34,264 bases of DNA from Folioceros fuciformis. Taxonomy: Eukaryota. Position 1 is the first letter of the stretch; each line of letters begins with the position of its first letter. The notes under the pieces are model-generated. The model worked only from the letters and a program-made list of their open reading frames with translations, was not told the DNA's origin and searched no databases. Shown one piece after another: positions 2,075 to 34,264 of the stretch. Made by a program: the position numbers and the translations under genes. The stretch covers positions 20,500-54,763 of the forward strand of contig JBNGIO010005982.1 in the NCBI GenBank assembly GCA_049999805.1. Reading direction: 5' to 3'.

Positions 2075-2291
2075 GCCTGCTCGCAAGCTCCCTCACCTTT
2101 CACCAATCCACTACCGGCCTAAAATCCTCTCATCAACGTTTTGTTTTGAAGTACCCCTTATAGTTCTACGGTACTCTCGAGCTCAGCGCAAGAGGGCCGA
2201 AGAGGAACGAGAGCAAGTGGCCCAAAAACAAAAGACCTAATAACCGAACTCGAGCCTAGAGAGCTAGCCTCTACAAGGTCTTATCACAATT

Positions 2292-6305: not shown

Positions 6306-9300
6306 ATGCTGGACTACCGCATATTGCAAACAGCCAACCTTGTCTCAGCTGTGGCAGTAGGGCACATAACTAGTCGTCTTGCTTACCAATTTGTGATGCT
6401 TAAGAAGGTAATGCACAGGATTGGAACCTGACAGCATTTGATCGCTTTCTACCACAAACAAGAAACTGTAGCAATGCATGTGCTTTCTAGTTCCTCTCAG
6501 GAGCTAATTGAGGTATGGGAGGTGGATGCTTCGCGACAAAGGAAGGCTTTATCAGCTAGCATGAAGTGTGCCTTAGTTGACTGTGCTATCCTCCAAGCCC
6601 CATTCGTGGAAGCATCGGCTGTGAATGCTGAACATCTGAATCTTGACTTGCTGCTGGTGATTTGATCGGTCGAATGATTTTTTCAGGAAGTAGGTCTGCA
6701 GCTGTCCATGTTCTGCGGACTTTGACACAATAGTCTGTCACCACAGGTACTGGATATCCAGGGAAGATTATCTGTCCTTGGATGGGACGGTTCGACAGGT
6801 CTAAGACAGAGCTGTGGTGGGGTACAGGTAGAGAATCATAGCACTGTGACTACTTTGCACTCACGTGCATTGTTCTCTCGTGCCTTGATACTTTCCAAGG
6901 AAGGTACCGCATGTTCGTCGTATGGAAAGGGAGCACGATCATCTGGTTGCAAGGACAGGGGCCTTGAGGTACCCTCTGTGTTTTTCGGCCAGATGTAACC
7001 AACCCACCTGATTCTAGTCACACATTTTTCTTAGGGGGACTATGTGCTCCACGGTTGTCCTGTCAGAATTCACAATGCTTTAGCCTTTCAGGTCCAGCTT
7101 GGAGGTATTACGTTGGTTGGATTTTCCCATGATGCAACTTCGCTTCAAGTTCTGGTGGTTGAGTGGACAAGCGTAGGAGATGCCGAACAAAGTGTTACAT
7201 CCATTTCTAGAGCACGTGTGGCTACATGGGCTGTATGTCTTAATCTTGTGGAAATGATGCAATGCCTTATAGCTCCAAACACGTCCGAGGTTTTGGTCCT
7301 CAAAGCCTCTGCCCATACTCCAAGATTTTGTTCCAATTTCACATCCTCTTTACTTACCATCCTCTCTTCACCTATGCAGGGTCCAAGGAGCAATGCCATT
7401 ATCTTGGACGTAGCTTTCATAGGTTCTACTATAAGCAACACTGGGAGCCCTGGAAGCGTTGTGGACAGCAAGGGGCGCCCCTTGATTGGCATCTTGTCAG
7501 CTGATCATGGAAGACTTTACCCCCTATCCTCAGGTCGACTCTGGACTTGTGCTTGGGGTTGGATTTCCTTCCCACACATAGGAGGCACCTTGGAAACTGC
7601 AGTAAACGCCAGGTGGTCCCTTGTTTGAGCTCAGGCTGTGCTCACCAACCTCTGTCGGTTCAATGCTTTGCGCTGGAGTTGAGTACGATGGAAATTGTGC
7701 AAGGTCCTTGGAAAATGAGGTTCGTATGAGAAAATAAATAAATTACTCGGTTCACTTGCACGTAAGATGGCTGGTTTGTTTTTCACTTACGAGACGTTGT
7801 TCGATGTGAACCCAGCAACTTGCACCCAACCACAACTTTCCTACTACCCTGGTTCTATCAGAGTACAAGAGAATCTTTGGAGATGTGCCAGGACGATGAG
7901 GCTCCAGTAGATACGGGATTGGAACCTGGTTTAGGGATTCTGCTAATTTCCAGTACTAGCCTCTTCTTTATTGAGTCTACTGGACGCCGAATGTCTCTCG
8001 CTGTGTCTCTGGAGGGTCTGCCCACATGCTATGATTCATTGAATGAGCAGCGCCTGGTGAGAGACTGTTTGGCTACTGAAGCTCTTGTGTTCCTTAGTGG
8101 AATGAAAAAATGTCCATATGTACCAGTCTAAAGTCAAAGTTTTTCTAATGGGTATCGATTTGGAGTTGGTTCATAAAGATAATCGGTGACAGCTCTGGGA
8201 CATTGCACATTTTTGACCTAAGTGAGTGGCACAACCATCAAATGCAGCGAATTACTTTCGAGGCATCTCCATCTGCCGCAAGGGTACTTGTTTTTCTTTA
8301 TGTAAAGTGGTTCTGGATGATAAAGGATTCAGAGAGTAGATGCTCGAACATTCCTGTTGCCGTTTGAGTGGATGCGTGAATCTTGACAGATAGTCAAAGA
8401 CATTCAACTATCGCCCAGAAACGGTGAGAACTTGGCAAAGAGGGATAGATTATTCTATCTGTGCAACTTCCTTGGGAAATCCGATGTCTACACTTTACAT
8501 TCCAGTCTTGAGAAATCGCCTCCTGCTTCTGAGGAATCACGGCCCAGCATATCTGTACCTAGAGAAGATTCAATGGGAAGCACTTTGTCATCAGGATTTT
8601 CTGCTATAACCTGGACAGCAAAGAAGCTAGTGGTGGAGGCTTCATTTCTACAGACTATAGCTCCTGTTAAGGATGCACTTTCTGTTTCAGTCGGTAGTTG
8701 TGACACAGGTCTGAATTTGTTAGTCGTTACTGGTTCAGCTCCAACATCTAAGTTACAGAGGTATGGTTTTTCTGAGCCGTCATATGAAGGAAAGGTTGAA
8801 GTCAGTTCTAGGACGAAGCTAACTTGCTTGTTGTTTCTCCAAGGGGCGATTTGGCAGTCGTTTTTATTGAGGATGATCAGATGGATCTCCATGTGATTTA
8901 CTTACGATTGTCTTTACTCGTTGATTCCTTGGACATGCTTCCGTCCGCTTAATTAGAATCCTTCATTTCGCTCTAAAATCTCCTTTTGCTACTACAGATA
9001 CCTGGGCTACCACTGCTGTTGCCATTCAAAATACGATGGGAGTCCGCATCTGATACTCACCTTCTGGTTTCATATCCTGTTCAGGTACCTCAGCTGCTCT
9101 GCTGACGGAAATCTTTTTTTTGTTTTGTTTTGTACATAACGGTTTCCTGAATCAATATTTCATGTCTGCACTTGTGCTTGCTGTAGAATGTCAGCTCTGT
9201 CATCGCGTTGGCCCCAAACGATGCACCAAATCCAATGCTCGATGCTATTGATCGATGTTGCAGTACTCTTGCTATTGCCCTATTCCAGGGGGATTTACTA

Positions 9301-12300
9301 GTTCAGGTGCGTAAGCTGAAAGTTGTTTATGGTGTTTGTGCTCTCAATTTTTTGTGAGGCTCGATCAATGGTTGTGCAAATCGTGATGAAAAAGGCAACT
9401 CGGGCCTCTGTGAGAGTGTTGAGTGTCTCTGGATGGAGAGTTTTCAAAGCAGAATGGACACCGCCAAAAGACAACAACCTAGATGTTATGCGACAGAATA
9501 ACTTGAGCCATGCTGCCTTTGGATCTGATGGAGCAGCTTTGGCAAGAGGTCAAGTGGTATATGCTTTGCAGCTGGATAGAACTGGGGGAATGCCTCACAC
9601 TACTGCTATTAGCCATAGGCCTCAACAGGTGAATTTGTCAACGTACATAACTGCGAAGGCTATCTTAGACCCAAAACACTGAGTGACAATATTTCAAACA
9701 TCATACGCTTCGACAACACATTTATTCATCCATCCTGATGTCAATCGTGAAATCATACAGGTATCTGCCTTATCGATCTTCACTCTGAAAGGTTCTTCTC
9801 CGGTGATAGTTGTTATTCTAGGTCTATGGATGACCAACACCGTGATGATCTTATCATGGCCATTGCTGGTGAGCTTTTTTCATGCTCTGCAACGTTCTTT
9901 CCCATATATTTACCATGTTTTGCTCAGGGAGTTTTTTGACATGCCAATCGTATGTTTCAGGATGATCTTTCTTGCATTTGCACTGATGGAGGTCCTATCC
10001 GCTCACTTTCGGGGGCAACTTTTCGAGACAACCATTACGTCTGTGCAGGAACAGCCGATGGGTTTCTCATGTGCTACAAGCTGACAACAAGTTGCAGCAC
10101 TGATAAGTCGAAGTGTTCGGATGATCGTCAATTCAAGGATAACACTGAAGGGTGCCAAAAGAGTACCTTCAATTGGTCCATCGTCAGCGGACAGAGACTG
10201 AAAACTGGCAACTGTGAAACGAAGTTGATGTTTGGCAGTTTTGGCAAGCAGGGAGATCGGTTCTCTGCTGAAGTTGACCAGACAGACTGCCTTATCGTTC
10301 ACAGTGATGAGCTGCTGGTACTGTTGCTGCCTGAAAAACAACAGAATCTTCAGGCTGTGACCGTTCATGACCTAGCCTATCCTTACAGGTCTTTAGCCAG
10401 GTTTGACGAATCCTTCCCCCACAAGTTTGCTTGTCAATAAGCTAAACTTGCTTCAAAGCATCGTTATGTAACCATCAAGGTTCCTGTCCTCATCATAATA
10501 TCTCTCGATAAAGAGAGGGTACTGTTTCTACACTTCAGGCTCCAACTGAATCTGTCACATCGTTTTGATGACCAACGTGTTCTTACTCAGATTTCAAGTC
10601 AATGGTCAGAATAGCGCTCTTGTGTTGCTAACTACTGATGGGCAGCTTGTGTTTGGCCACCTGGACATGCATGTATCTTTAAGGTTAATGGTGTGTGCCG
10701 TGGTACTGCAATTGTGTGATTCTGGCAGACGTGCGTATGCAAGAGTAATCTTTGAAGGTTTTTTTATAAGGTTCTCCTTTGGCCTGCAGATGGAGGGCAA
10801 GCACGTTGCCAGGTTCTGCAGGACAGCTTGCATACCACTCCACGAGCAATTGTACTATCGTCAGCAGCATGGTACGTTAGATTCTTGTAAAGCCTCCATC
10901 TGGCCATTTGCTGGATATCTGATTTTCGACTAAGGATCTGCAGGAGGAATCAGGTGCATCAACCCTCGCAATATTTCAGCTTCCTTCCATGTCCCAGGTA
11001 TAGGATAAGTGACTGAGGATGTAGTCCCTATTTTTGGTAAAAGTGGAGAGCATCATTGGAATGAAGTGGAAGAATCTTATGGTTACGAACTGAGCCAACC
11101 GGGTTACATTCAGGTGCTAGGCCTGGACCTTGGGAACTCTCTTCATCTAATTCTTCTGAAGGTTGTAAAGTTGCCTTCCTTGTTCAACGAGGTGATAGCT
11201 CCTCTCTCTTCTGTAACCTTTCATGGTGCTCTCGGACTGTTTGCTGAAGATTCTTTGTTGTAACAAAGGTGAATTTGTCTCATGATGCATGTCGACTTTC
11301 GCAGGAGGTGATCTGGAAGGAATACCTCATTCTTGTGTGTGAGCAAGTGAATCATTCAGCGGGACACCTTTTTCTCTTTGACCTCCGTGTATCCAAACCG
11401 GGTAAGTATCTTCAGGGCCCCTTGCTTGCATCGATGCAAGTTCTCACGGAGTACTAACCGATCATGATCCAACCTTTCCCTCAGCGGACGGAGAAACACA
11501 GTATGAAATGACGTTTCTTGGTAAACATGGCGTCGATCTCCCTTGCTACTCGATGTGTGTCTTGAATCTTCCTGAAGATTTCTCGTACAATGGCAACCGT
11601 TGCTCAACTGAGCAAGGCCACCGAATGAAACTGCTTCATGAAGATCGTAGCAGGTGAACATGCAGGCAGAACTTCGATGATGTGCTAGATCTTTCCTCAC
11701 TTCAGTTGCTTTCGTGACAGTTATAATTTTTGGACAGAGAGTTGATCGAAAGGGTACAAAGTGCTGCCATCTTAGCTGTGGGAAGTAAAGGCAGAGTGCA
11801 GCTTCTGTCATGCTTCGTTGCACACACCGGCGTTTCTCTCTCTCTACTGGCAGCACTTTCAGGAGCTCTGGATGCAGCTCTTCCATCTCCAGACGGTACG
11901 TTCGCAAAATGAAGATAAGAGACGTGTTACTTGGGAGGCTCAAAATGACATGACCTTTTCTGTTTACTGGACATGTTGTCAGCTTATGTCGAACAGCTTC
12001 ATGAGGCCGTGGACAAAGATGAACCAAGCAGTGCTACAGACTTTTGGGAAGGGTGTGAAGCAACAGAGCCACCTTTCTTACATCCATCGAAGAGCAAAAC
12101 CTGCCTCATGAATCTTCAGCACATTGTGACCTTCTCAACCACAGGAGGCGGCTACGTGACAGAATTGATACCTGGGTTTGAAGCAACATTAACGGTCGGC
12201 TGGCAACCATGGCCAAACTCCTTCAAGCCTGTGAGGACCGACCGTCCCTTCCTCTAATGGTGTTCACGCGTTGGCAGGTAGTGGAATACCTGCACGGAGT

Positions 12301-20238: not shown

Positions 20239-21302
20239 GGCTAGCCATAAAAATCAGGTGGCCAGGTTTGGGCCCCACTGATCTGTCACTGTTCTTATAC
20301 GAGTGTGCTTGCAAAGGTTGCCACATAACATGTGACCATCATACATACACCATATACAGTATAGGCTTGACCGGCTACCGGTTGTGTCTGCCACCGGGTT
20401 GTAAGAATATGGTTTAGGTACTAAAACCCTCATTTCAAATCGTGGTTTGCTTACACTACGGTGCACGAAATTGGCGCCAAATTCGTGCTCCTTCGATGGA
20501 CAACGGTGATCCTAGCTAACCTCGCTTACCACCAAATGATGCGCCCCGTACTACTTACTACCAAATAATCGTATAATACCTGTCATGGATTTTGACTTGC
20601 CAAGGGATTGTCCATTCTCGATAGAAGTACCATGTCCTAGTTCATTTCGAGAATGGCAGCTCACTTGGCAAAAGTTGCTGTACAAACATTCTTTAGCTCT
20701 AGAACGCATAAAGGAGGCTAGAATCGCCCATATTCCTTGGGAAAGAGTGCAAGATTTTGTGGCAGGAATGGATAGCCAGCATGAAGCACCGAAAAATTTT
20801 ACTCGTGTTTGGACAAAAAGGCCTAGCCAATTACCACAACCAAGCCAGCCAAAAATAGATTCTCCGATCACTGTAGTCAGGTACATTGGTTTCAAATTGC
20901 TTCTTTCAATTTGTTTTCAAATGTCACATGATGCTGTCACAACCTCACTTTTCATAGTGGTAGAGTTTGCTCCACTACACTTTATTCTTATCAAATCATA
21001 TACCAAACTGTTTGCCTTAGTGAGCCGAATCTAACCATATGGTATGTGTCCAATGTTGAGCACATTTGAGTAGAATGCTGCAAGAAAAGGTTTTCTTCAC
21101 ATCCTGACTTTGGGTGTTCAATTCTTTGTCCAGCCTTCACTAATTGTTGCATGCTATATACCATTCTGTTTCGCTCACCAACACAAACAGAATGACTTGT
21201 TTTTTGTGCATTTTGGAGCACATTTGAGTACGCTGCAGCAAGAAAAGGTTTTCTTCATATCCTGAATTTGGGTGTTCAGTTCTTTCTCCAATCTTCACTA
21301 AT
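20239..21302 (+). mobile_element. 5' part of a Mutator-like (MULE) element: putative TIR, first coding exon (20585-20880) and intronic ~170-bp repeats; interrupted by a copia LTR
   Basis: The 45 bp at 20239 match 30355 at 41/45 positions (start GGCTAGCC). The exon peptide LTWQK...RIAHIPWERVQDFVAG...PKNF resembles, from memory, the N-terminus of plant SWIM/MULE-derived proteins (At4g13970 type, RLALIPYTRVDDFVRG). GT donor at 20881. Confidence 0.65.
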
Positions 21303-21813
21303 TGTAAGTAGACAGCCTACCCCATTGCCATAGGTGGGGTGTCTGCTGTATAAGTACCTTCCCTACCTACGTAGGTGTCTTCCCTTTTCCTCACGTAGGT
21401 ACTCTCTCTACGTATCTAGGTAGACATCCTACTACATAGGTATCTTCTTATCCTAACCTACTAGAATAGAACTAAAAAAATCCATAAAAACCTTCACCAG
21501 CTGCTCACTACCTACCATGGGCACTTGCCCAGAAACCTACCTTCCACATGCCCCCCTTCGAACTGTTCTGAACAATATCTAGGTTAGGGCACTATTCATT
21601 AGGGCGCCTCACTTAAACATTATTATATATCTAGGGCATTAAGTAGTTACTTAATTAGTTTCTCTAGGTAGTTAGTTGTTATATTAATTACAACCAACTA
21701 ACAGTTATAACAACTTATGGTTATAACTACCTAACCACCTAACCACCTTGCTTATAAATAGGCTTTGTACTTTCTATTATATATTGTAATAGAGCTTAGC
21801 ATGATTTTCATCA
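21303..21813 (+). mobile_element. 5' LTR of a Ty1/copia retrotransposon
   Basis: Begins TGTAAG exactly where the MULE-associated repeat breaks off; TATAAATAGG near 21753; ends ...CA immediately before the PBS. Confidence 0.8.
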
Positions 21814-21824: not shown

Positions 21825-22636
21825 TAGCTTTGCTCTTGATGCTAGAACTACTTTCCTATTTCCTCCTAAGGCATTCATTCTCCTATGCTTCCTTTCCAAT
21901 TAGATTTTTAAATGGAACTTCTATGCGCTGGAGATCTCGCTTTTGGCAGCTCCATGATGTTTTTGGCAGCAAATGGATCAAATTGTACATCCTTAAAGCA
22001 TCATGCTTTAAGGATGCACAATTTGTGCATCAAATCCTTGCCCTTGCACCATGGATTCTCCAAATCCCATTAAACAAGGAGTTTGGAGAAATATCAACGC
22101 TGCAAGGCAAGAGAAGCGAGAGAAGGACCACAAAAACAACAAAGTGCATGGCTGTGAAGAGCTTGAAGACGTCTCTAAACAAGTTGCTAATTTCATTGGA
22201 TCTATTTTGATTAAGTCACCAGATCAAGGAAATTTAATTAGACTTACTAGACGAGATCTACTTACCTCTTTTGATTTGTTGCAAGTTTGTGCAATCCAAT
22301 TAGCTCTTCAACATATTCCTAACTTGGTTGCTGGCCCTTCATTTCCCGGCTTGAAACTCTTGGTTGCATAAAGAGTAACATTAGACTTACCTAAAAATCC
22401 AATCATTCTAATTTTGCCTTTTTGCAACAAGAAATTAGCAATATTCGGGATCATCTAGATAGGCTTCTTCCCAAAGGAGATTCTGATTTTGATGATAAGA
22501 TAGATACTCCAGTAAATATAGCTGGCCAAGCCGAGATGATCTGCTCCAAATACGCATGTCCTTTCTCCGCTCGCGGTGATCGGAAATCAAGTGCGCCTAT
22601 CGGACAAATTAATCATCTATTTTGAACTCACTTGCG

Positions 22637-23911
22637 ATGACTGGAGTAAATGTTGACGACTCCGATATTAATCAACTTGAAAAAGTTAAAAAGCAGTGGC
22701 TAGAGGAGCCGAAGGCCAAATGGCTTGATGAGAAGAAGAGTTGGGAAGCCGAAAAGGCTAAAGAGAAAGAAAAATTCAAACATGATCCAAAGACGTCAAC
22801 AACAGTGGTTCATGAAGATAGCTTTAAGGAGAAGGATAGATTCAATGGAAAAGGATATGATGTATGGAGTATTCGCATGCAAGGAGTATTGCGGCAGCAT
22901 GAACTATGGGATATAGTGAGTGGTTCCAATGATCGTCCCATGTGGGGATTCGACTCTATAGAAGCATGGGACAATAAGGATCAGAAGGCCCAAGATATTC
23001 TAGTGAGTGGACTTACTGAATCCATGGTTCGCTAAGTTTTTGAAGTCTATTCCTCCAAGGACATGTGGGACCACCTTGCCCAGTTATATTCATCTAAGGA
23101 TGTAATGAGCTTGTTGTCTGCTACCCGCAATTTTCATAATCTCAAGATGAGAGAGAATGACTCCATTGATAATCATATCAGCATTTTTCGAATCGCCAAG
23201 TCCAACCTTGAAGCAGCATCCGGCACCAAGTTGACCGAACAATCCTGTTTTATGACTCTTCTCGCCTCTCTACCACCCTCCTACATGGCTTTTGTGACTA
23301 CTCAAAATGCAGTTCTCCGAGCTGCTCAGAAAAATCATGAAGCCTTTGGTGATGCCAACTTGGATTTAAGCGTCACCGAATTGATTGGAGCAATCATACA
23401 GGAGGACCAAAGTCGTCGACATGAATCCATATCAACTAGACAGCAGCTGATGTTCACTGGATGAGGTAGAGGAAGAGGTCGAGGCCGAGGTCGCGGCAGA
23501 GGACTTGTTTCTTCACGACTCAATTCCAACCAATATTCACAAGGCGGTGAATCCTCGTCTTCTTCAGCACCTGCAAGAGGTAATAAGAAGACTAGAGTTA
23601 TTTGTAATTGGTGCAGAATTCCGAATCATATGGAGAAGAATTACAAGAAAAAGAAGAACGGCGAGCCTAGGAAGAAGGCTGCCTCTGGAGCACATGTTGT
23701 AGTGAAGAAACAATCTTCCACAACATCGGCAGCTCTCACTGTCTGCATGGCATCATCAAAGCCATCAAACCAATATTGGTATTTGGACAGTGGAGCTACA
23801 TCACATATCTGTCACAACAAAAACTCTTTTGAGTCTTATTCGCCAGCCACAGGACACCAGACTGTGTGACTGGGCGATGATCACAACCTCCCCATCTTTG
23901 GTGTAGGTTCA
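22637..23911 (+). pseudogene. Ty1/copia gag-protease, truncated, with in-frame stops
   Basis: One frame: RFNGKGYDVWSIRMQGVLRQHELWDIV (gag N-terminus), UBN2-like LLASLPPSY, an RG tract, degenerate zinc knuckle CNWC-x4-H-x4-Y (23603-23644) and protease WYLDSGATSHIC (23777-23812). Stops at 23033, 23462 and 23867. No integrase or RT present. Confidence 0.9.
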
Positions 23912-24279
23912 TGTGGAGGCAAAACCCGGGGCACTGATTGCCAACGGGTTCCACCTTTAGTGGCCACACTTATCCCACTGTCGTTGAGACATTGGGTTTC
24001 GTTCCCACGAAGGAGCAATGGGGTTCCTTGCTGCTGTGGATGGAGGGTCGGACTTGATCAACTCGATGATGGATTCAAGGGCTCCTCTCCAGCTCCGATC
24101 AGGCGTAGGACAGGCCTCGCTGTCTGGCGGTCAGCTGCACCTCTCTCGGTGCCCACAAACTCACTTCAATCACTACAACGACCCTAACCTCTCAGATCTG
24201 CGACTTCCCTCACACACTTCACTCACTCTCTCACTCCAGCACCAACACTAGCAACTACCAGCAACCAGCAACGGCACCA
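23912..24279. mobile_element. Possible LTR-like segment (TG...CA, 368 bp) joining copia pol to the transposase remnant
   Basis: Copia homology stops right before TGTGG at 23912, and transposase homology resumes right after CA at 24279. No TSD. Confidence 0.3.
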
Positions 24280-25007
24280 TATGATCTTGAACTGGTTTTG
24301 AAAAGATATATTATGCAGCAGATGAACCGCTGCAACATTCTGATACCCTGCTTTCCCATACAGTACAGGCCACACAAGCTTTCTAAAGTCCGGCACCTCT
24401 TTCACCTCATGAATGTCTGGCATGGGGGTATACGCATTCTGCATGACCGTAATAAGGTTTGGTGAAGTCAAAGCTTCCTTCCGACTGAGTGGCGTTGAAA
24501 AGCTGGGAAACATGTGATCTACTTGGTCGTGCATATTGCCCACTAATAAGAACCCCACTTTTATCTTCACAAAAACCCGGTTTTCCACTAACATATTCAA
24601 ATAAGGAAAAAACAACGCGTTTTTGTTTTCTTGTGCAGTGTTGTCTAGCTGCAAGTATAGAACTCTAGGTAGCAGGCTGTCGTACTTGTATATCACGCGC
24701 TGAATAATTGATATTGTTAGGTTTGCATCGTTTTGAATGTTCCCAAACTCGGTGAAGAGCTTGGGTATCATAGTCTTGTTGTATATCATACACCCTACCA
24801 CAAGCACATCAAAGAGGCCAACATCCACCAAATCTTTTGGTACTTGAACGAAATGGGGCAGCTGAGTCTTTTGTTGATTTATTCCATCCACTGATATCCC
24901 AATGTACTTCCCGGGGTCGCCATAACATTTGACCCGATGTTTGATACTCTTCTCGTGCTCTGCTTTCAATCTATGTTGATGTATCTTCAGGTCAGATTCG
25001 AAGCCCT
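24280..25007 (-). pseudogene. DDD transposase catalytic exon, Sola-like (DUF7869-type), copy 1
   Basis: SVDGINQQKTQLPHF, DANLTI, LPRVLYLQLDNTAQENKN and FLLVGNMHDQVDHMF match the DGMDQ / LQLDN-x2-ENKN / VGHTH-x-D-x-D pattern. AG acceptor at 25008-25010. Superfamily assignment is recalled, not searched. Confidence 0.8.
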
Positions 25008-25067
25008 CTACAAAAAACGCATGGAACTTCAAATCAGAATAAGAAGAAATATGCACTAATGGTGGGC

Positions 25068-25345
25068 GTGCGCCGGTCTAACGGCGCACACCTACTTGCA
25101 GAAAAATGGCCCGAGTGCGCCGGAAGACCGGCTCATTCCGACCATTTTTCTGTAATGCGTTATACATTACGGAAGGGGTGCACCAGTAGACCAGCGCACT
25201 CCGGCCATTTTTCTGTAATGCGATATACATTACGGAAGGGGTGTGCCGGTAGACCTGCGCACTCCGGCCATTTTTTCGTAATGCGATATACATTATGGAA
25301 GGGGTGCGCTGGTAGACCGGCACACTCCGGCTATTTTTCTGTAAT
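25068..25345. repeat. 63-bp tandem repeat (~3.7 units), each with two hairpins, in a chimeric intron
   Basis: Units start at about 25116, 25179, 25242 and 25305. Consensus GTGCGCCGG-taga-CCGGCGCAC plus TTCTGTAATG-cgatata-CATTACGGAA. A single copy of the first hairpin lies at 25068. Confidence 0.9.
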
Positions 25346-25444
25346 TAGAAGTGATTTTTCCCTTACGTAGGCTGGAGTGACATAGTTCCTAATTTGTGAT
25401 TTTGCTTTTTGTGTGGTTCTTCTGAACAAAATGCTTTTTGGTAG

Positions 25445-26200
25445 AAACCAGCAAACACCATAGACCTTGAAGCATTGTCGAAGCCTTTTCAAGATTATGT
25501 TTATTCTGCTAGAAAGTGGAAGCGCAAGGAAGAAGAAAAGCAGAGACTCGCAAATGCAGATATGGATGCAGGATTATCAGAGTTCAGAGTCCGAAATAGT
25601 AACAATAAGACCAAGTATCAAGTTATCCATCGAAACGTTCTGGAGATGAAAGCATTTCTAGTAAAACGGCCGTATACTCTCTTATTTGCAGATTTGCCTC
25701 GGGAACTGCAACGACATGAATATGACAGGCAGCTGACAAGCGAAGAGCTTGAGGACATGATTCGAGGGTTTTCAGAATGCACCAGCAGTAATGTGTATAG
25801 GGTGGTTCTTATGCATGACGTGGATCGGATTACATAGGCTAGGGAAGCACTTCGGCCATGGTGCAAGAAGGGAACCATTCAGACCTTAGTGTGCGAGAAG
25901 ACTAACATACCTCCCAATGCAGGCGCAGTAGAGCCTGTTGAGTATTTAACTGTTGGAAGTGCAGTTCACTCTGAAGCTCATGACACAAAAGCTTCATTAT
26001 TCGCGAATCAGGGATTCCTTCTTCTGAGAGTTATAAGGCATGGTGCTGTGGTGAAGAAACATATGTTCCACTCGGCAGATTCTCTAGACGTTTCGCCGTA
26101 TCAAAAGCCCCTTGGTTTAATGGGTATGTTGGTGAATATGTTCTCCGCTGAAGGGGATTGGGTAGTGGATGCTTGTGCAGGATCGGGGTCATTTCTATAG
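25445..26200 (+). pseudogene. Beta-class amino-DNA methyltransferase (N4-cytosine/N6-adenine, N6_N4_Mtase-like) exon with one internal stop
   Basis: The frame is continuous from a phase-0 AG acceptor (25443-25444) across a TAG at 25835. YQVIHRNVLEM...YTLLFADLP corresponds to IHGD...DLIFADPPY (motif IV). PYQKPLGLMGMLVNMFSAEGDWVVDACAGSGS corresponds to HPTQKP...GD-x-VLDPFxGSG (motifs X/I). The motif order is that of the beta class. Confidence 0.8.
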
Positions 26201-26213
26201 TCTTCGATTCAAA

Positions 26214-27300
26214 CCATGGCTTGCCTTGCATTTCACTGGTTTTAAGTACACCCCATTTGAAGAAGGAGTAGATGCCTCCTTTCACTTTCTTTTTCTTTTC
26301 TTTCTCATCCTTGCTACCACATGTTTTGCTTGCTTTGGAAGTTCTAAGGCTTCCCACTTCAAAAATATCTTATTCACATTTTCCCACTCTCTCCCCTCCA
26401 CCTTTGCCATACAAAATATATGTGTCCTATTGTCAACCTCATGCCGCTTATATTGCTCATCTTCCTGACCCTCATTGTCTTCTATCAACCCTAAGACCTT
26501 GTAGAGATTGAACTTCCAATTCATACTTATGGTCACACCATCTCGCTTCACTATTTGAAGTTTATCCGTAAGTATCAAACTTTCTTTTTAAATAAAGCTC
26601 ATCCTTTTCCACTTACCGGACATTATGTTGTGGTCTATAGTGAGAACTCACATCTCATGTTAATCCACAATCCACATGTGCCTTCATTCATTGGTACTTT
26701 GCTTTTGACGGTGCTATGTTCGCCAAATGCAGGGTAACTTGGAAAATATGATTGCCACCTACTAGCTCCATGACATACTTCTTTGCCTGAAACTTTGCCA
26801 TGTCTAACTTCAAGATGTCATTTGTAGTCATTGGGGTCGATCATGCACAACAAGGGCATAACACCTTCTTCCATCCTCCCCTTTGCAATTACTCTTGCAA
26901 GATACCTTGCCCATGCTTCGTCCACCTTTCTTATTTGTGCATCACCAGTAAAGAATCACGCTTGCCGCAAATTTTCTAGCTTTACAAGCATTAGTCTCTG
27001 GCTGCACCTTCTTGTTTGAGCTTTACAAGCACCATCTTTGACTGCACCTTCTTGTTGTAGGGTGACTCGTGGATGCTCTGAACTTCATCCTCATCGTGGA
27101 AGGAATCCTTGATTCTCTCTTTGTCTATGGTCACATGCAACATTGACATGTCATTGCTATGTCGGGCATGCACGCCCCGCTTTCTCTTCTTCCTCGTCAT
27201 ATCGCTCCCCATGTCCAAAATTCCTTGGCCAGACACTGGCACTCCCTCGAGATATGTCCAAAATTCCTTGGCTGACAATGTCACTACCTCGAGCTGTTTC
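26214..27300 (-). pseudogene. Degenerate ParB-like domain gene fragment (stops and frameshifts)
   Basis: Manual minus-strand translation: QIRKVDEAWARYLARVI...MPLLCMIDP...KYVMELVGGNH (GGNH at 26748-26759)...AHVDCGLT...DHNIMSGKWKRMSFI...FCMAKVEGREWENVNKIFLKW...MQGKPW (26214-26231). The R-x2-D...(V/I)(D/G)GNH pattern is ParB/Srx-like. Confidence 0.6.
26978..27057. repeat. ~41-bp imperfect tandem duplication
   Basis: agctttacaagca...ctgcaccttcttgtt at 26978 and 27019. Confidence 0.75.
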
Positions 27301-27934
27301 CGTTTCTTGACTTGTCATTACCAACACCCACTTAGTTTGCTTTGTTTAGAACTTTGGCTATGGATAATAATAATTTATGCAGGAATGCGCGGATTCCACG
27401 GTGCGTCTCCCGCCTGATTCCCGTTGTCGTTGGTATAGTGCTATGTTGGACATCGCCCGCCACGAACATCTCGGTTGTAGTGCCCTCTAGGTTTGTCTTT
27501 GCTCGACGTGAGCTGCACATTATTCCTTCGAAGGTTTATTGTAGTCCGCTAAAAACAAATACCCAGCAAGAAAGACATAGCCCTTGCCTCTGATTCCTTG
27601 CAGGGAAGTACTGCACGAATACTGTTTGCCGTGATGCCCTAGACAAGGGTACAGTCCACAGTAAAAAGCATCAGACAGCAGCAGGTGACAAGGAAAAGAG
27701 CTTCAGGAACAAAGGCGCAGCTCTCTTTGAAGAATCAACGCACAAGTTCTTAGGCCAGTCGTTCACACAAGGAGGACGGCTGTACTGCTTTATGTACATT
27801 CCTGCGATAGTGCTTTCCTTCCACTGTTGACTTGTGGAACCTGATCGTACTTTCAAAGTAGACATGACACAATGGTCTTATTCCCCTGACGAGGATCCAC
27901 AAAAAATTGCCCTTTACCACTAGGAAATGCTGAT

Positions 27935-30216
27935 TTATGACCGCCTCCTTCGAATTCTCAAAGGCAGTCCCTCAGCAGGTTTTGGCAACAGCCAATCCAC
28001 TTTTTTCGGAACCAGTGCGAGCTCTATTGTTGGCTCAAATCTGCTCAGCACAGGCATGAACGTGACGAAAGCCTGGTCAGCCTGGGAGGTGAACCTGGAT
28101 TGCAACCAACAAACGTCCAGCCGCCAGATTTTGACCAGACCAGGTATGCCCACTTACTCATAAGACTGAATGAAACGATGCAGAAACACCAAAATGTCCA
28201 GCTTGCCCAACTCACTACCCGGGCATACTCTGTAACCATTTCCGAAAGGTGTGTACGTATTGGTCTTCGGCGCCGTCTGCATCCATAAACCCCACATGAT
28301 GGTTTTCCGAGCTCAGAATACCAATCTGTGTTCTCTGAAATTGTGCCTAGCTATGGTAACCACACGGTTGATCTTACCTTGAACCGGTCCGGATCAAATC
28401 TGTAAGGATCCGGGAAGAGCTTGGAGTCGAGATGGACAGACCGGAACCAGGTAATTACTGTCCACCCTTTTGGGAAAAAGATTCCTGCAAAATCCATCCA
28501 CTCTCCGTCACCTTCCCAACGATAAATACTTAGTTGTAGGATTGCACAAGACGGACAGGTAACAGGTTGAGGGCTTAGAGCTGGACGACGTACCTTTGTA
28601 AACCACATCCTGGATTGCCTCCCTCAGAGCAAATGGAGCAACGTTAGCTAGTCTCAAGCTCTCGTCAAGTACCTGCGAACGCGCCACATGTTGTGATGCG
28701 GGTCATGAGCCCTCAAAGGATCCCGCGCCCTCAGTTTTGTGACTTACACGCCGGGTCACGGGCAGCTGCTGTAGGTCATCCCAGGTGATAGGATCATCTT
28801 TGCATGTGCGCCTTCCCGCAACCGCGTCATTCTCGGCCTACAGGATCCAAAGAGAAAATGCAGCTTGGATGTGACAAATAAAATACCAGTACCTTACAAA
28901 AGGGAACAGTTGTGAGACTTCAAAGGATCGGATTTGCGTGCCTTGACTGCCTGGAAGATGTCTGGATGTAGACAAAGATTGTTTAACACCCAACATAGAG
29001 ATGTTGCCGTGGTGTCGTAACCAGCGAACATGACAAAGATGATGTTGTCTGTAATCTGGTGGTTCTTGAGGTCCTCCAATTTAAGAAAAGAAGCAATCAG
29101 GTCCTCGTGGTGTGCTGATGACGTTGCCGCCCGTCGTCCTTCAATCACATCGTTCAACAAGCTGACAATTTGTTGCCGTGCCTGCGAATCCAAGGCAGAA
29201 ACCTTAAGGATGGCACGGTAATGGCAACGAATTCCGCACGTTAAGCAAGCGGAAGGTGGGGATGCATGTAGAACGTACTTCCATAGCCCGTTTGTACGGC
29301 GTCCCTGGTATGCTGAGAGGGAGGGCGGTGGTCACACCTTTCTCCAGCACAGAGACGCTCTCACGCAGCTTCTCCACGACAGCTCTGTCTGTCAGACTGT
29401 CGCAGATGAACTGCAGGGCTACGTCAAAGGAGAACTGCGCAAGCCAGAACAAATTCCGCATCAGCTTGCTCTGACCGGTGGCAAATCAAATCCGCACCCC
29501 TCTTCCATCACCCCACTGCGATTTACCAAGTACCCTTTTGGCCTCGTCGAAAAGCTTGATCACCACGGACGAAGACGGATCCCATTCCAAAGGCACCATC
29601 GACTGCAAGCAGCCTTGCGCGGTTCTGTCGATCCTGGGAGTGAATCGTCTGAGAGCCTCGGGAGTGAGAGGCGCCAGCACCAGCCTCCGGTACAGCGAGT
29701 GCGCCTCCCCCTCCATCTGGAAGATACCGTGCTTCCCAAACATGTCGGAGGGCGGCCGCCTGTCATAAGCTCCTTTGAACAGCTTGGGAGACTGAGTCAC
29801 GAATTTGATTGTCTCCGGCTCTGTGACGCACACGGTAGGTTTGCCAAGCAAGTGCGTTCGGAAAACAGGCCCGTACCTGTGCAGATTCAGATTCAGGATC
29901 AGGCGCAGCCTAGCGCTGCTGAAATTGCAGGCCAATGAACTTCAAGTGCGCACCCCCCGAACCCGGCTGCAACAACGTATCACCGCTTAATGCGTGGAAG
30001 CAAGAAAGCTTCTGGAGAGGGGGCGGTCAGCAACTGGATGCTCTCGCCCGCCAGAGGCAGCTGCCAGAATCTGCCGCGCACTTCCGCCCCTTTCCTGCTG
30101 GCTGCCGAGCACAGAGCCTGCGAATACAGGAAAATGCAGGCCAGCAAAATGGGGGCAGCCCCCAAGGACACAGCCACCCACACATCAGCGGCCCAACTCC
30201 AGCCCATCCCCTCCAT
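27935..30216 (-). CDS. Cytochrome P450, CYP85 clan, most similar in motifs to CYP707A (ABA 8'-hydroxylase-like); 9 exons
   Basis: N-terminal TM segment; LPLAGES; YGPVFRTHLLGKPTV; I-helix FAGYDTT; ExxR (DESLR); FDPDRF; heme motif PFGNGYRVCPG (~28220-28252); C-terminal PKPAEGLPLRI. Introns are GT-AG. Start could be 30216, 30228 or 30252. Exact family not established. Confidence 0.9.
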
Positions 30217-30354
30217 CGCCCGGCTCATCTCACCGCATCTAGCCCTACACATAAGCCCAAGCAACCAGTCCTCTAACAAGCACCCAGTTGCTGATGCCCG
30301 CGTACAGTGAAGAGAATGAGCAATCGGAAAATGCCAAGCTTCATTGTGAAGAAT

Positions 30355-31752
30355 GGCTAGCCGTAAAAATCAGATGGCCAGGTCTGGGCCCCACCGATCC
30401 ACTCGTGCAGCTGTGCCATGCTTCATGTATGACATCCCATGGCTTGTGCATACGGATACGGTTAGCATGATACGGTTAGCATCTACGTATGGTTTTGCAT
30501 GGCACCGGCAACCGGTGAAATAAAGCGGCACCGGCAAGCCGTGGGTTATCGCCGCGAAAAACGGGCTGCCAATGCAGATCACTAGCGAACTATTGTCCTT
30601 GTTCTACAGCGAACACTATTACACTACACACAATAAACGTATACGAATACGCATACGTCTTCAAAAACACTTTCTTCAAAAACACATGCGCCTCCCCGGA
30701 ACTAAGTCCCGCTTTTCTTCTTCCATGGGCAGAACCAAGTATGCTTCTCGGTCAGAGATAGGCAAGTGTGTGTCTGCGTTCGTGAGCATAGAATGTTTGC
30801 CATGGATTTGCCATTGCAGTCTGGAGCCCCATGGATTTGAAATTGCAGGCGTCTAAACGCTATGGATTTATAGGCTGCAGGAATCTAAGGCCCATGGATT
30901 GGAAGGCTGCAGGAGCCTGAGCTCCATGGATGTGAAGGCTGCAAGTAAGAAGGTCATGGAGGTAACAAGGCACTATATTGAATGGAAACTAAATCCACAA
31001 AGCAAGAAAAACATGGAAGCCAAGGTACTCCAAGAAAAACCATGGCGTGCAACCCTGCCATTGTCATGGAAAACAAGGCATGTAATCATCTATCATTGGC
31101 CTCTATGCATTCTCTTTGTCATTTCCTACATTCCAAGTGATTTTCTTCCTTTTTTCCCCTGGGAGGAGAAAAGAGAGGTCTCAACCTAGCTGGATTGCTT
31201 GGTCCTTCAATTGGTATAAAAGGTTGTAATGACCTACATTCTGGCTGTCCGCCAGTGTCTTGCATTTGGTCTATGAGCTGCTTCACAGCCAACAAAGTAT
31301 TATGCACAAGGGCATCAGCATGCAATAATTAATGGAGATTGGAGAAAGAACTGAACACCCAAAGTGAGGATGTGAAGAAAACCTTGCATTGCACCTTCCT
31401 GATCACATTTCCTGATCACATGTACTCCAAAACGCACACAAAACACATCATTTTGTTTGCCTTGCTAAGGCAAACAGAATGGTATATAGCATGCAACAAT
31501 TAGTGAAGACTGGAGAAAGAACTAAACACCCAAAGTCAAGATGTGAAGAAACCCTTGCATTTACAACATCCTTATCAAATGTGCTCCAAAACGCATACAC
31601 AACATATTATTCTGTTTGCCTTGCTGAGCCAAACAAAATGGTGTACAGCATGCAACAATTAGTGAAGACTGGAGAAAGAATTGAACACCCAAAGTCAGGA
31701 TGTGAAGAAAATCTTTTTTTGCAGCAGTCTGCTCAAATGTGCTCCAAATGCA
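30355..31752 (-). mobile_element. Second MULE-like fragment: TIR-like end, internal gene remnants and ~2.5 copies of the ~170-bp repeat, inverted relative to 21050-21302
   Basis: 30355-30399 matches 20239-20283 at 41/45. 31327-31752 is the reverse complement of the repeat at 21050-21302; both translate to MVYSMQQLVK.G.RIEHPKSGCEENLFLQ. Confidence 0.6.
30940..31052 (+). pseudogene. Short fragment of the linker region of the ParB-like gene family
   Basis: KKVMEVTRHYIEWKLNPQSKKNMEAKVLQEKPWRA parallels ENVNKIFLKWEALELPKQ...MQGKPW (26.2-26.4 kb) and MQGRPWRA (32838). Confidence 0.45.
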
Positions 31753-31772
31753 CAAGTAGGAAGCGCTCATAC

Positions 31773-32715
31773 TGTTCCACTAACATATTCAAATAAGAAA
31801 AAAGCAACTCGTTTTTGTCCTTTTGTGCAGTGTTGTCTAGTTGCAAGTATAGAACTCCAGGTAGCAGGCCGTCGTACTCGTGTATCACGCGCTGAATAAT
31901 TGTTATTGTTAGGTTCGCATCGTTTTGAATGTTCCTGTGAGTTGACATGGATGCTATATAGACATATGCGCCAATGTTGTCAAAAAGCAAAGATTAAATA
32001 ATTAAACACATCGTGGCCTTATATACAAAATTGTAAGAGTCACGTCTATTCATAAGACCTAAGAGTCTAAAATAGCTAACAGTAAGTACGTTTATTATTA
32101 CTATAAACCTATCGAGAGGTTTATATCCAAACAGTTCCCAAACTCGATGAAGAGCTTGGGTGTCATAGTCTTGTTGTGTATCATACACCCTACCACATGC
32201 ACATCAAGGAGGCTGACATCTGCCAAATCTTTTGGTACTCGAACAAAATGGAGCACCTGAGTCTTTTGTTGATCCATTCCATCCAATGATATCCCAATGT
32301 ACTTCCCAGGGTTGCCATAACATTTGAGCAATGTTTTATACTCTTCTCACGCTCTGCTTTCAATCTATGTCAATGTACCTTCAAGTCAGATTCAAATCCC
32401 TCTACAAAAAACACATGGAACCTCAAATCGGAATAAGAAGAAATACGCACTAATGGTGGGTATGCGCCGATCTACCGGCGCACTCATATCATACCCAGAT
32501 GATAAAGTGCGCCGGTCAACCAACGCACTTATAACGCAAGGAGGAAAGGAACTGCGCTGATCGATCGGCGCACTTGAAATGCCCACAACAAACACAATTT
32601 TAAAACACTCTTACGTACCTTGTTTCTTCTTATCAGGCTCAGATCGTATGTTCCTTTTCAGGTAGTCGCGGGTACTACATAACGAAAACCTATTGGTCTT
32701 CGGAATTCGCACTTT
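31773..32715 (-). pseudogene. Sola-like DDD transposase, copy 2 (two exons, split by a solo LTR)
   Basis: Upstream exon ~32715-32619 KVRIPKTNRFSLCSTRDYLK...KKQ, GT-AG phase-1 intron 32618-32402, then SLDGMDQQKTQV...LYLQLDNTAQKDKN. Nucleotide paralogue of ~24580-25090. Confidence 0.85.
31936..32133 (-). mobile_element. 198-bp solo LTR with perfect 5-bp TSD (GTTCC)
   Basis: TGT...ACA termini; GTTCC at 31931-31935 and 32134-32138. The paralogous empty site in copy 1 (ttttgaatgttcccaaactc, 24731-24750) has a single GTTCC. TATATAAGG lies on the minus strand. Confidence 0.9.
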
Positions 32716-33110
32716 GAGTAGGAGTAGGAAGCTCTAGGATAAAGAAACGTGCAAAAGCCAAGAGGAAACCTGGGGAAGCTGAACTCGCTTCCAGTAGTGC
32801 GCAAATGTCAGATGAGTCATCGAAGAAGGTTGCAGCAATGCAAGGAAGGCCTTGGAGGGCTTTTCAAGGAGTCCCAGCAGGGGTTAAAGGTGAGAAAATA
32901 CTAATAGCTGTGACGCAAAAGGTCATCTAAGGCAAGCTGCACCTGAAAGACATGGACATAGAGGTAGGGAAGAAGAAAAAGATACATTTGATACAACATG
33001 CTTTCAGGATGGCTTTGAAGTGTGCAACATTTGAGGAAGTGGAAGGCTTGTATCCTAAGCACATGGAAGACTTACATCTACTCAAGTTCCAAACTGCCTT
33101 CACACAAGTG
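32716..33110 (+). pseudogene. Middle exon fragment of the putative ParB-methyltransferase gene, back-to-back with transposase copy 2
   Basis: One frame with one stop: ...KKVAAMQGRPWRAFQGVP...VTQKVI*GKLHLKDMDIEVGKKKKIHLIQHAF...YPKH...FQTAFTQV. It is followed by a phase-0 GT donor at 33111 and an intron containing TGCGCCGGTCTACCGGCGCA (~33163). Confidence 0.55.
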
Positions 33111-33207
33111 GTACGCTTGCTTTTTCAGAGCCTTTAGATGTTTTTGAGCATACTGGTTGGATTGCGCCGGTCTACCGGCGCACTTCTTGAGAAAATATGG
33201 AAATTGG

Positions 33208-33426
33208 TGTAGACCAATTGCTATAAAACAATTACATTATTCTATTTATTAAACAATAATTATATACAGCATAGACAAATAATTGAACTTAAGCTAGGTA
33301 GGGTGAATAGACACACCCTTTCATAAAGGACGTAACCAAAATGAACGGGCACCTAGACTTATAGTAGCTATGAACGCATTCACCAAACGAAACCTAATGT
33401 ATTAACACCCTATTCTCATCACTCCC
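33208..33426 (-). mobile_element. Probable 3' LTR (33208-33407, 200 bp) and polypurine tract (33408-33426) of a minus-strand LTR retroelement extending past the window end
   Basis: TGT...ACA termini. The minus strand reads GGGAGTGATGAGAATAGGG directly before TGTTAA and has TATATAA and AATAAA inside. Confidence 0.6.
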
Positions 33427-34264
33427 ACTTGTTAATCATTATGGGGTCGGTTTGCCTCCCCTCCACTACGTTCAGAGTTGTGGAGACTGTGACTCCAGCT
33501 GAGAACCTCGCGATCCTTGTGTGTACTTTGGGGCGTAGGCTCAAGGTGGCACTGCTGTGTATGAAGGCGACCGTCTACAGGTTCACACTTCTTGTAGCTG
33601 CTATTTACGTCCCATGCCTTCTGGCAATAAAGCTCGTTGAGCGAAGGCTGAGGAAAGTAACAATGGCGTCTTTAGGGTTTGATGATGCTCTAGCAGCCAA
33701 GCGGTGCACATACCAGCGGGACTTTGCAGGAAGATTCATCACATCGCCTGTGGCTAGAACAACTGCCATCGGAGCGTGTACTAACGGGCTGTTGTGGAAT
33801 AGAGGCGCTTCAATCGAGGTGAGTTCGAGTACGAAGGTGCTGACCAACGTCCTCCAATTCCACCCAGATTTCTAGTTCTAAGCAACGTCATGTCAGAGAC
33901 CAAGGTGATCATACCTGGTACTTGGGAAGTGCCGGGCAGCCCGCTGTGGTATAAGTGCCAAGTTTCTGGCATCACCATGAAGAGAGTGAGGGTTGAAATG
34001 TTTTTGGAGTGTAAAGGCTACATGATCAGCTTCTACAATAAGCCTCTTGCTGATGGTAGCTTGTGGCATAATTGTTTCCTAACCCCCTGCTGATTACCAT
34101 CACTTGTCTAACTTTGCTCCCACTGTCTCGTCACAGGGTCTGAAGAGCGACTGGAGGAGGAACAAAGCTTGGAATCTAAGGACAAAATCTCCTACAAGGA
34201 GAGGAAGAAGAGACAGTCTCCTCGTTCGGAGAATGAAGTCTTTTCCTCTGACACTGTGGAATAT

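Follow-up and report, generated by a model that had tools for sequence, protein, structure and literature searches.

Transposons are usually targets of host DNA methylation; fungal KDZ elements carry TET/JBP genes, and retrotransposons with C5-methyltransferases exist. The consulted part of PMC4738411 adds DIRS1, which has an inactive methylase domain, and Dam-like genes of Trichomonas that lie near transposons. Here we describe a stretch of 34,264 nucleotides of nuclear DNA of a plant-like eukaryote, from the streptophyte (plant) genome of Folioceros fuciformis (assembly GCA_049999805.1, contig JBNGIO010005982.1, positions 20,500 to 54,763 of the forward strand; the whole stretch is referred to as the window), in which exon-like pieces of a gene for a transposase-like protein with the Pfam domain DUF7869 adjoin, on the opposite strand, pieces of a gene for a ParB-linker-methylase. 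We propose, with a probability of roughly 55%, that three dead fragments in the window come from a single repeated family whose intact unit carried both genes. Such a unit would resemble the KDZ, DIRS1 and Trichomonas cases in bringing together a mobile element and a base-acting or degenerate enzyme, whereas the partners here are a DUF7869 gene of the type with three conserved aspartates (DDD) and a ParB-fused beta-class amino-methyltransferase, in streptophytes. If true, the two-gene reading would be a further case of transposons carrying DNA-modifying enzymes.

Eukaryotic N4-cytosine (N4C) methyltransferases of bacterial origin are represented by bdelloid N4CMT (PMC8885841; structures 8s9m/8s9n) and Marchantia DN4MT1 (bioRxiv 10.1101/2021.02.12.428880), both of which are, in the parts of these sources consulted, single host genes with no adjoining transposase reported. 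They share with the methylase family described here its standing as a eukaryote-acquired beta-class enzyme and a similar fold, whereas their motif IV begins with S (TSPPY in DN4MT1, from the same part of the bioRxiv source; S is the first motif IV residue of N4C enzymes in the consulted part of Iyer et al., PMC4738411) and that of the present family begins with D. The bacterial and phage beta-class N6-adenine enzymes CcrM, M.MboIIA, M.RsrI and M1.HpyAVI (PF01555) are like the family in their motif order, with IV before I, and CcrM-type enzymes also have the QKP...D..GSG block common to the family; the fold of a relative (P0017) matches CcrM. In contrast to CcrM-type enzymes, the family belongs to eukaryotes (streptophytes), its genes have introns and its proteins a long helical linker, and the DPPY of those enzymes is replaced by D-[IFV]-P-Y, or by DLPR in the branch to which the window piece belongs. 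A putative N-terminal ParB/sulfiredoxin (Srx)-like domain recalls phage clusters that combine ParB_N and N6_N4_Mtase; beta-class N6-adenine enzymes of phages often have a ParB_N fusion. A ParB-helix-turn-helix-fused Dam-like clade in chlorophytes and chytrids, and a haptophyte clade from phage ParB-terminase loci, are described in the consulted part of PMC4738411, which describes no land-plant ParB-fused circularly permuted methylase, although its supporting information may list plant members. For the partner gene, the Sola superfamily of DDD cut-and-paste transposons has been described for moss (PMC10741241, consulted in part). Sola is like DUF7869 in having three conserved acidic positions on a core seen as RNase H-like, and in occurring in early-diverging plants and many animals; the label 'Sola-like' in a preliminary description of this DNA is a tentative one. 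A search of the literature for the transposon, for methylases of this family and for DUF7869 brought up no description of the pairing or of the plant methylase family, and no paper mentioning DUF7869.

Evidence beyond the window came from protein libraries, metagenome contigs and four public sequencing runs of the same organism label (X1 to X4), of which X1 is DNA-like and X4 was guessed to be RNA.

A streptophyte methylase family and its pieces in the window

The beta-class methyltransferase exon-like piece lies at 25445..26233 on the plus strand and runs from motif IV (DLPREL) through motif I (DACAGSGS). It is preceded by an AG acceptor-like site, lacks the C-terminal ~40 residues of the domain, and its open reading frame (ORF; 25445-26197) is interrupted once, by an in-frame TAG (25835-25837) that was translated as X to give the query P0001. 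Word-based searches with the piece found no homologue of near or longer length, and an exhaustive HMMER search with P0001 returned 29 relatives at E<=1e-3, seven of them at E<=1e-10. The curated threshold of PF01555 (N6_N4_Mtase) was passed by 14 of the 16 relatives scanned, and a family profile built from 13 members, the window piece included, matched CcrM (1.9e-11), MboIIA (7e-11), RsrI (6e-10) and bdelloid N4CMT (1e-6) among sequences of the PDB, in agreement with the preliminary description, which had called 25445-26200 a beta-class methyltransferase exon. Named members comprise two hypothetical proteins of Chara braunii (P0019, P0020), one of Riccia sorocarpa (P0008) and a gene model of Ginkgo biloba (P0014). 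The nearest Atlas clusters (62 and 55 members) are all eukaryotic with Streptophyta commonest; the next are viral (Uroviricota) and combine ParB_N with N6_N4_Mtase, at a score of 0.86-0.87 that serves as a lead only. The Chara protein P0019 holds repeated copies of the domain set, and its top match is the 62-member cluster, with Streptophyta as the commonest phylum.

The fold was compared on the AlphaFold model of the relative P0017 (789 aa; mean predicted local distance difference test, pLDDT, 76.3), not on the window piece. Its residues 535-771 aligned with CcrM at Z 24.0 (root-mean-square deviation 2.8, 219 residues aligned), and the model gave Z 23.4 to M.BceJIV, 21.9 to MboIIA and 20.2 to the N4CMT structure 8s9n, with a Foldseek E of 8.8e-12. 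In the N-terminal part, residues 99-239 matched the ParB-like protein PadC (Z 8.7), and six further rows at Z 6.4-7.5 comprised KorB, a serine kinase, two sulfiredoxins, a Pnob8-like ParB-N domain and SbnI, all of which we take to be of the ParB/sulfiredoxin fold. Pfam did not match ParB_N in the N-terminal region of the relatives, giving weak DUF6551 rows only (E 0.019-0.16), and a profile of the ParB-like regions met one chance ribosomal-protein row only among PDB sequences. The ParB/Srx-like assignment is therefore a tentative one, drawn from the fold comparison, sequence methods alone not having confirmed it. Taken together, these comparisons support the placement of the plus-strand pieces of the window in a beta-class amino-methyltransferase family, and the combination of ParB/Srx-like domain, helical linker and beta-class methylase is a streptophyte-wide gene family.

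In P0001, motif IV (DLPREL, residue 83) precedes motif I (DACAGSGS, residues 242-249), as in the beta class. Among the 29 relatives, motif IV reads D-[IVFL]-P-[YFH]-G in 13 and DLPRGL in six, and it departs from the catalytic pattern (D/N/S)-P-P-(Y/F/W) in that the proline at the second position is replaced throughout; the window branch also lacks the aromatic residue. Its first residue is D in the window and in all 20 relatives in which the motif was found, so that the family resembles N6-adenine rather than N4C enzymes. Of the 'N4C-N6A methyltransferase' named in the preliminary description, the beta-class membership thus stands, whereas D in place of S makes the motif N6-adenine-like, with DLPR in the branch of the window. 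Judging from sequence, methylation of DNA at adenine N6 is the most likely activity of members with D-[IFV]-P-Y. With DLPR, canonical catalysis is doubtful: this branch has probably lost or changed it, and may act as a binding partner of S-adenosylmethionine or of DNA. That DLPR is kept across six representative clusters separated at 50% identity argues for a selected change and not for decay.

Two other parts of the same gene were found in the window. The linker exon (32716..33116, plus strand) contains a basic stretch, then PW..QG..EKILI and then a helical region; it has an in-frame TAA at 32928-32930 and a donor-like site (G followed by GTACG) after 33115. Residues 395-479 of P0017 matched 32847-33116 (tblastn, E 2e-5), as did residues 310-344 of the Ginkgo protein P0014 the linker exon (tblastn, E 0.004), which bears out the linker exon previously placed at 32716-33110. 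Since residues 491-731 of P0017 matched 25499-26191 (E 6e-14), consecutive residues of one protein match both pieces, and the linker and methyltransferase exons correspond to adjacent stretches of a single gene. This gene family is also represented by an inverted and decayed ParB/Srx-like domain at 26327..26940 on the minus strand, which was met when an in-house profile of eight ParB-like regions of relatives was searched against the six-frame window (E-values refer to six sequences as the search space). Three segments of the profile, 60-129 (E 1.1e-6), 116-219 (E 3.3e-4) and 23-71 (E 5.7), matched in order on that strand, split over three reading frames and with stops; P0019 gave a tblastn E of 7.5e-4, and a KKRKRK basic stretch follows the piece down to 26282, as in the relatives. 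The ParB-like cargo suggested in the preliminary description is thus present as a piece and has counterparts in the ParB/Srx-like N-domains of the relatives, but it lies on the minus strand at a place that description did not list. With this piece, all three parts of the methylase gene are present in the window, each separate and broken.

DUF7869 copies, a shared palindrome and the pairing of the two genes

The transposase-like exon of copy 1 (24283..25032, minus strand; PF25273) was matched by residues 3-251 of the relative P0037 (tblastn, E 5e-62), and the ORF that contains it (24223-25077, minus strand) is stop-free and reached 135.6 bits (E 2e-39) against DUF7869, for which the curated threshold is 26 bits. 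Of relatives of ~560-586 aa, the exon represents residues ~3-251 only, and it is truncated at 24282, where it abuts a very high-copy repeat; contig loose ends at 24279/24282 indicate that other copies run on where copy 1 ends, and back a left break at 24280-24282. Copy 2 (31703..32340, minus strand; residues ~2-184 of relatives) includes ORF 31733-31993 (minus strand), also above the threshold (49.6 bits, E 4.6e-13). On its left it is truncated beside 160-bp tandem repeats, and it is interrupted by a 1-bp deletion and by 203 inserted bp (31936-32133, with the 5-bp repeat GTTCC on either side). This insertion is AT-rich, has no GT-AG ends on the coding strand and is missing from one X1 contig. 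DNA identity between the two copies is 88-92% over 24583-25094 and 31775-32488. The end of the copy 2 transposase, previously set at 32715, has to be moved, as its coding homology stops near 32340 and the DNA similarity at 32488.

All seven longer relatives of the DUF7869 protein (521-586 aa) carry PF25273, and eight aligned sequences share xDG, LQLDNTxRENKN and GHTHDxxD. Weak Foldseek rows of the P0037 model comprised Argonaute/PIWI proteins, foamy-virus integrase, RNase HI, a terminase nuclease and NurA, presumably all of RNase H-like fold, and the order of strands and helices in the model itself reads as RNase H-like. The Atlas clusters of DUF7869 are 100% Eukaryota, and their commonest phylum is Arthropoda, Tardigrada, Chordata or Rotifera, depending on the cluster; this all-eukaryotic range with a varying animal phylum fits a mobile-element protein. 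A cut-and-paste DDD transposase is therefore the likely identity of the DUF7869 protein. The C-terminal part of the full-length relatives P0035 to P0041 (residues ~430-520 of P0037) forms a beta-rich domain with conserved PFWIAKV...V.WY that is missing from both window copies; it gave weak BAH-domain Foldseek rows (DNMT1 BAH1) and may be a chromatin-reading module.

A palindrome, GTGCGCCGG-N4-CCGGCGCAC, gave eight matches at up to three mismatches against none expected (positions 25068, 25115, 25178, 25241, 25304, 32462, 32507 and 33162), all of them within the fragments and none elsewhere in the 34 kb, so that the shared hairpin of the preliminary description proved specific to the fragments. 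Five palindromes with these cores form an array of 63-bp tandem units at 25068..25345, between the transposase and methylase exons of copy 1; folded as DNA, the array reached -81.3 kcal/mol (z -9.1 against shuffles). Repeat comparison together with the motif scan placed three palindromes at 32462..32573, upstream of the transposase exon of copy 2, and a further one lies at 33162..33183, about 47 bp downstream of the linker exon's donor-like site. Palindromes thus sit upstream of the acceptor-like site of the methylase exon as well as beside the donor-like site of the linker exon, for which the simplest model is a single unit in which several introns held palindromes and deletions ran from one palindrome to another. 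In the metagenome loci, the palindrome was absent from all eukaryote-like loci, and the 12 loci with matches are prokaryote-like contigs. A contig joint from 32485 to 25344 was considered as evidence of adjacency and rejected, one of its sides being only 28 letters long and consisting of the palindrome itself.

In both copies (2/2), the same transposase exon end and the same first palindrome face, from a few hundred bases away, opposite-strand pieces of one gene. This agrees with the earlier observation that two minus-strand transposase-like copies are joined to plus-strand coding pieces, the former now matched to DUF7869 and the latter to the methylase gene. On the proposed model, the intact unit would have had two divergently transcribed, intron-bearing genes. 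One would encode the likely cut-and-paste transposase, the DUF7869 protein, whose conserved D...D...D would sit in an RNase H-like core, and the other a phage-type accessory protein in which a helical linker joins a ParB/Srx-like N-domain to a beta-class amino-DNA-methyltransferase domain. The introns of both genes and the spacer would contain copies of one long palindrome, and recombination or deletion between these copies could have produced short derivatives: copy 1, with the transposase exon joined to the methylase exon; copy 2, with it joined to the linker exon; and a separate inverted derivative that would have retained only the ParB-like domain.

Both parts are repeated in the genome. 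The summed contig depth of X1, which is no copy number, was 160-616 over 24442-26367 and 148-320 over 30220-33400, compared with 9-23 over 27010-30219, and the same variant letter at single positions was found in 12-20 different X1 contigs in the methylase exon and in 6-18 in the transposase. As many contigs with variants cover single positions, the methylase and transposase parts exist in many non-identical copies. All pieces in the window are non-functional, being truncated, interrupted by stops or frameshifted; no RNA match was listed for 24223-26233, and X4 contigs gave no cover on the transposase or methylase pieces, which says nothing on expression. Over 23800-33400, the differences of run X3 were mostly C>T, at 229 places, and G>A, at 316, a substitution pattern as from a bisulfite-type library; if so, the run would be usable for 5-methylcytosine over the fragments.

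Neighbouring genes and repeats

A cytochrome P450 host gene lies between the fragments on the minus strand, at about 28050-29941, and matched Pfam p450 in two frames (E 1e-19 and 2e-17). It is covered by X4 contigs whose joints skip stretches that have CT..AC as their plus-strand ends, as expected of GT..AG introns in a minus-strand gene; it is an expressed, spliced host gene. Because it separates the dead fragments, the span 24280-33190, which the preliminary description treated as one element, is not one element. Upstream of the P450 gene, 14 X1 and 12 X2 contigs start matching at 30355 and are unlike the sequence before it (agreement 0.4), so that this position looks like a repeat edge.

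Further features of the window include an ORF for the splicing factor Slu7 (443-2092, minus strand, E 4e-95), whose 549 aa are not interrupted and which may represent an intron-less or retro-copied gene, and a Copia gag/pol fragment at 22613-23869. The repeat at 23912-24279, which borders copy 1, is very high-copy: its summed X1 contig depth was 70,000-150,000 against about 11 in unique sequence, many contigs with unlike flanks meet at 23912, and it is also covered by a 5-kb contig of X4. It matched no Rfam family, nor did an Rfam search of 23700-26400 as a whole. Tandem repeats of ~160-170 bp at 31316-31755 adjoin copy 2 and are covered by X4 contigs, and an inverted tandem-repeat set at 20998-21305, 10 kb to the left, is 77-89% identical to them.

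Origin of the pairing and its meaning

Several observations weigh against a two-gene transposon. The window holds no intact copy; both transposase copies are truncated, so that termini and 4-bp target-site duplications are not definable in it, and no terminal inverted repeats or target-site duplications enclosing both genes were found, the inverted repeats in 22000-34264 being the palindromes only. DUF7869 was found in none of 68 metagenome loci that encode methylase relatives (0/68), although this is not strong evidence against linkage because most of these loci are only 1-5 kb long, and they may be transcripts; the closest is only ~25% identical to the window methylase piece, and the one long plant-like locus (L010, 11.4 kb) breaks off at the gene's 5' end. 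The ratio of nonsynonymous to synonymous change between the transposase copies (dN/dS 0.64 over 163 codons) is near that of neutral decay, the P0037 model is poor (mean pLDDT 56.8) and found no Foldseek match at E<=0.001, and a scan of viral contigs found no DUF7869 relative. The X1 depth of the ParB-like piece (20-29) is far below that of the other parts, so most copies may lack this part. The methylase piece P0001 itself scored 24.4 bits against PF01555 (E 3.3e-5, over its last 41 residues only), short of the gathering threshold of 26.7 bits; profile assignment of 25445-26200 to a methyltransferase fold, on which the preliminary description let its proposal hang, was accordingly obtained from the family profile and the fold of the relatives and not from the score of the piece. 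Lastly, as annotation treats the Chara, Riccia and Ginkgo relatives as ordinary genes, the methylase could be a host gene family. Of the divergent two-gene transposon first suggested, what remains is the adjacency in both copies, the repetition of both parts and the palindrome common to them, without enclosing termini and without a second pair among the 68 loci; the transposase-methylase pairing is seen only in the window. As a separate observation, L010 encodes one relative in two parts, ParB-like at 16-561 and C-terminal methylase at 9020-9469, with 8.5 kb between them, and the ORFs in this interval have motifs presumably of non-long-terminal-repeat reverse transcriptases.

Pack-MULEs pick up genomic pieces of host genes, and the window could likewise hold captured fragments of an ordinary streptophyte ParB-linker-methylase gene, taken by a DUF7869 element or by palindrome-mediated recombination and amplified as non-functional cargo. 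The annotated gene models of Chara braunii, Riccia sorocarpa and Ginkgo biloba speak for such a capture, as do the intron-exon boundaries kept in the pieces, which are expected of captured genomic DNA, the different single exon in each copy, and the summed depth of the ParB-like part, much lower than that of the exons adjoining the transposase. We nevertheless consider it unlikely, in that two different exons of one gene adjoin the same transposase end in the same orientation and the donor-like site of the linker has a palindrome next to it as well, away from the transposase, which a shared unit fits better than two captures; the repeated domain sets of P0019 and the 62-member cluster, moreover, look like a proliferating family. 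It is rather improbable that two independent repeat families became nested by accident, with the palindrome arrays as hot spots of insertion or recombination: the surroundings are indeed a mosaic of repeats (the Copia gag fragment, the very high-copy repeat, the 160-bp tandem repeats and the inverted ParB-like piece that abuts the methylase exon) and the pair was not found in the 68 loci elsewhere, but in both copies the same transposase end and first palindrome (88-92% identical through 25094/32488) face pieces of one gene, and the rest of the window has no palindrome.

The Uroviricota clusters that follow the streptophyte ones in the Atlas ranking are a lead, though no more, towards a viral origin, in which the fragments would be left over from an endogenous large DNA virus, or from a Polinton-like element, with a phage-type ParB-methylase and a DUF7869 gene. 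This origin appears very improbable, given that six-frame Pfam scans of 24000-33300 show no other viral gene, that splice-site-like signals flank the pieces, and that among viral contigs the DUF7869 scan was without a relative and the methylase scan gave only five short, weak and generic matches (25-38% identity). The reading that we prefer thus remains the repeated two-gene family, in which joint movement of the two genes would explain their adjacency and deletions between palindromes the different exons that each copy retains.

A wider version of this proposal is speculative and, in our estimate, quite unlikely as a whole: that streptophytes from Chara to seed plants harbour cut-and-paste elements with a phage-derived, ParB-fused N6-adenine methyltransferase that would recognise the element's own palindromes as parS-like sites and mark or protect its DNA, with the DLPR branch as a non-catalytic reader or regulator, and that such elements might be a source of domesticated plant amino-methyltransferases.

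As the copies in the window are dead, the value of the finding is in the lead and not in the locus itself: a streptophyte repeat family that pairs a DDD-type gene with a phage-type ParB-methylase merits a genome-wide test. Even without the transposon link, a streptophyte-wide family of ParB/Srx-linker-beta-class methylases has been defined, with members in Chara, Riccia, Ginkgo and Folioceros fuciformis. If the link is true, an element with its own amino-methyltransferase would reverse the relationship in which the host methylates the transposon, and would offer a route by which bacterial or phage enzymes for N6-methyladenine or N4-methylcytosine could enter and spread in plant genomes.

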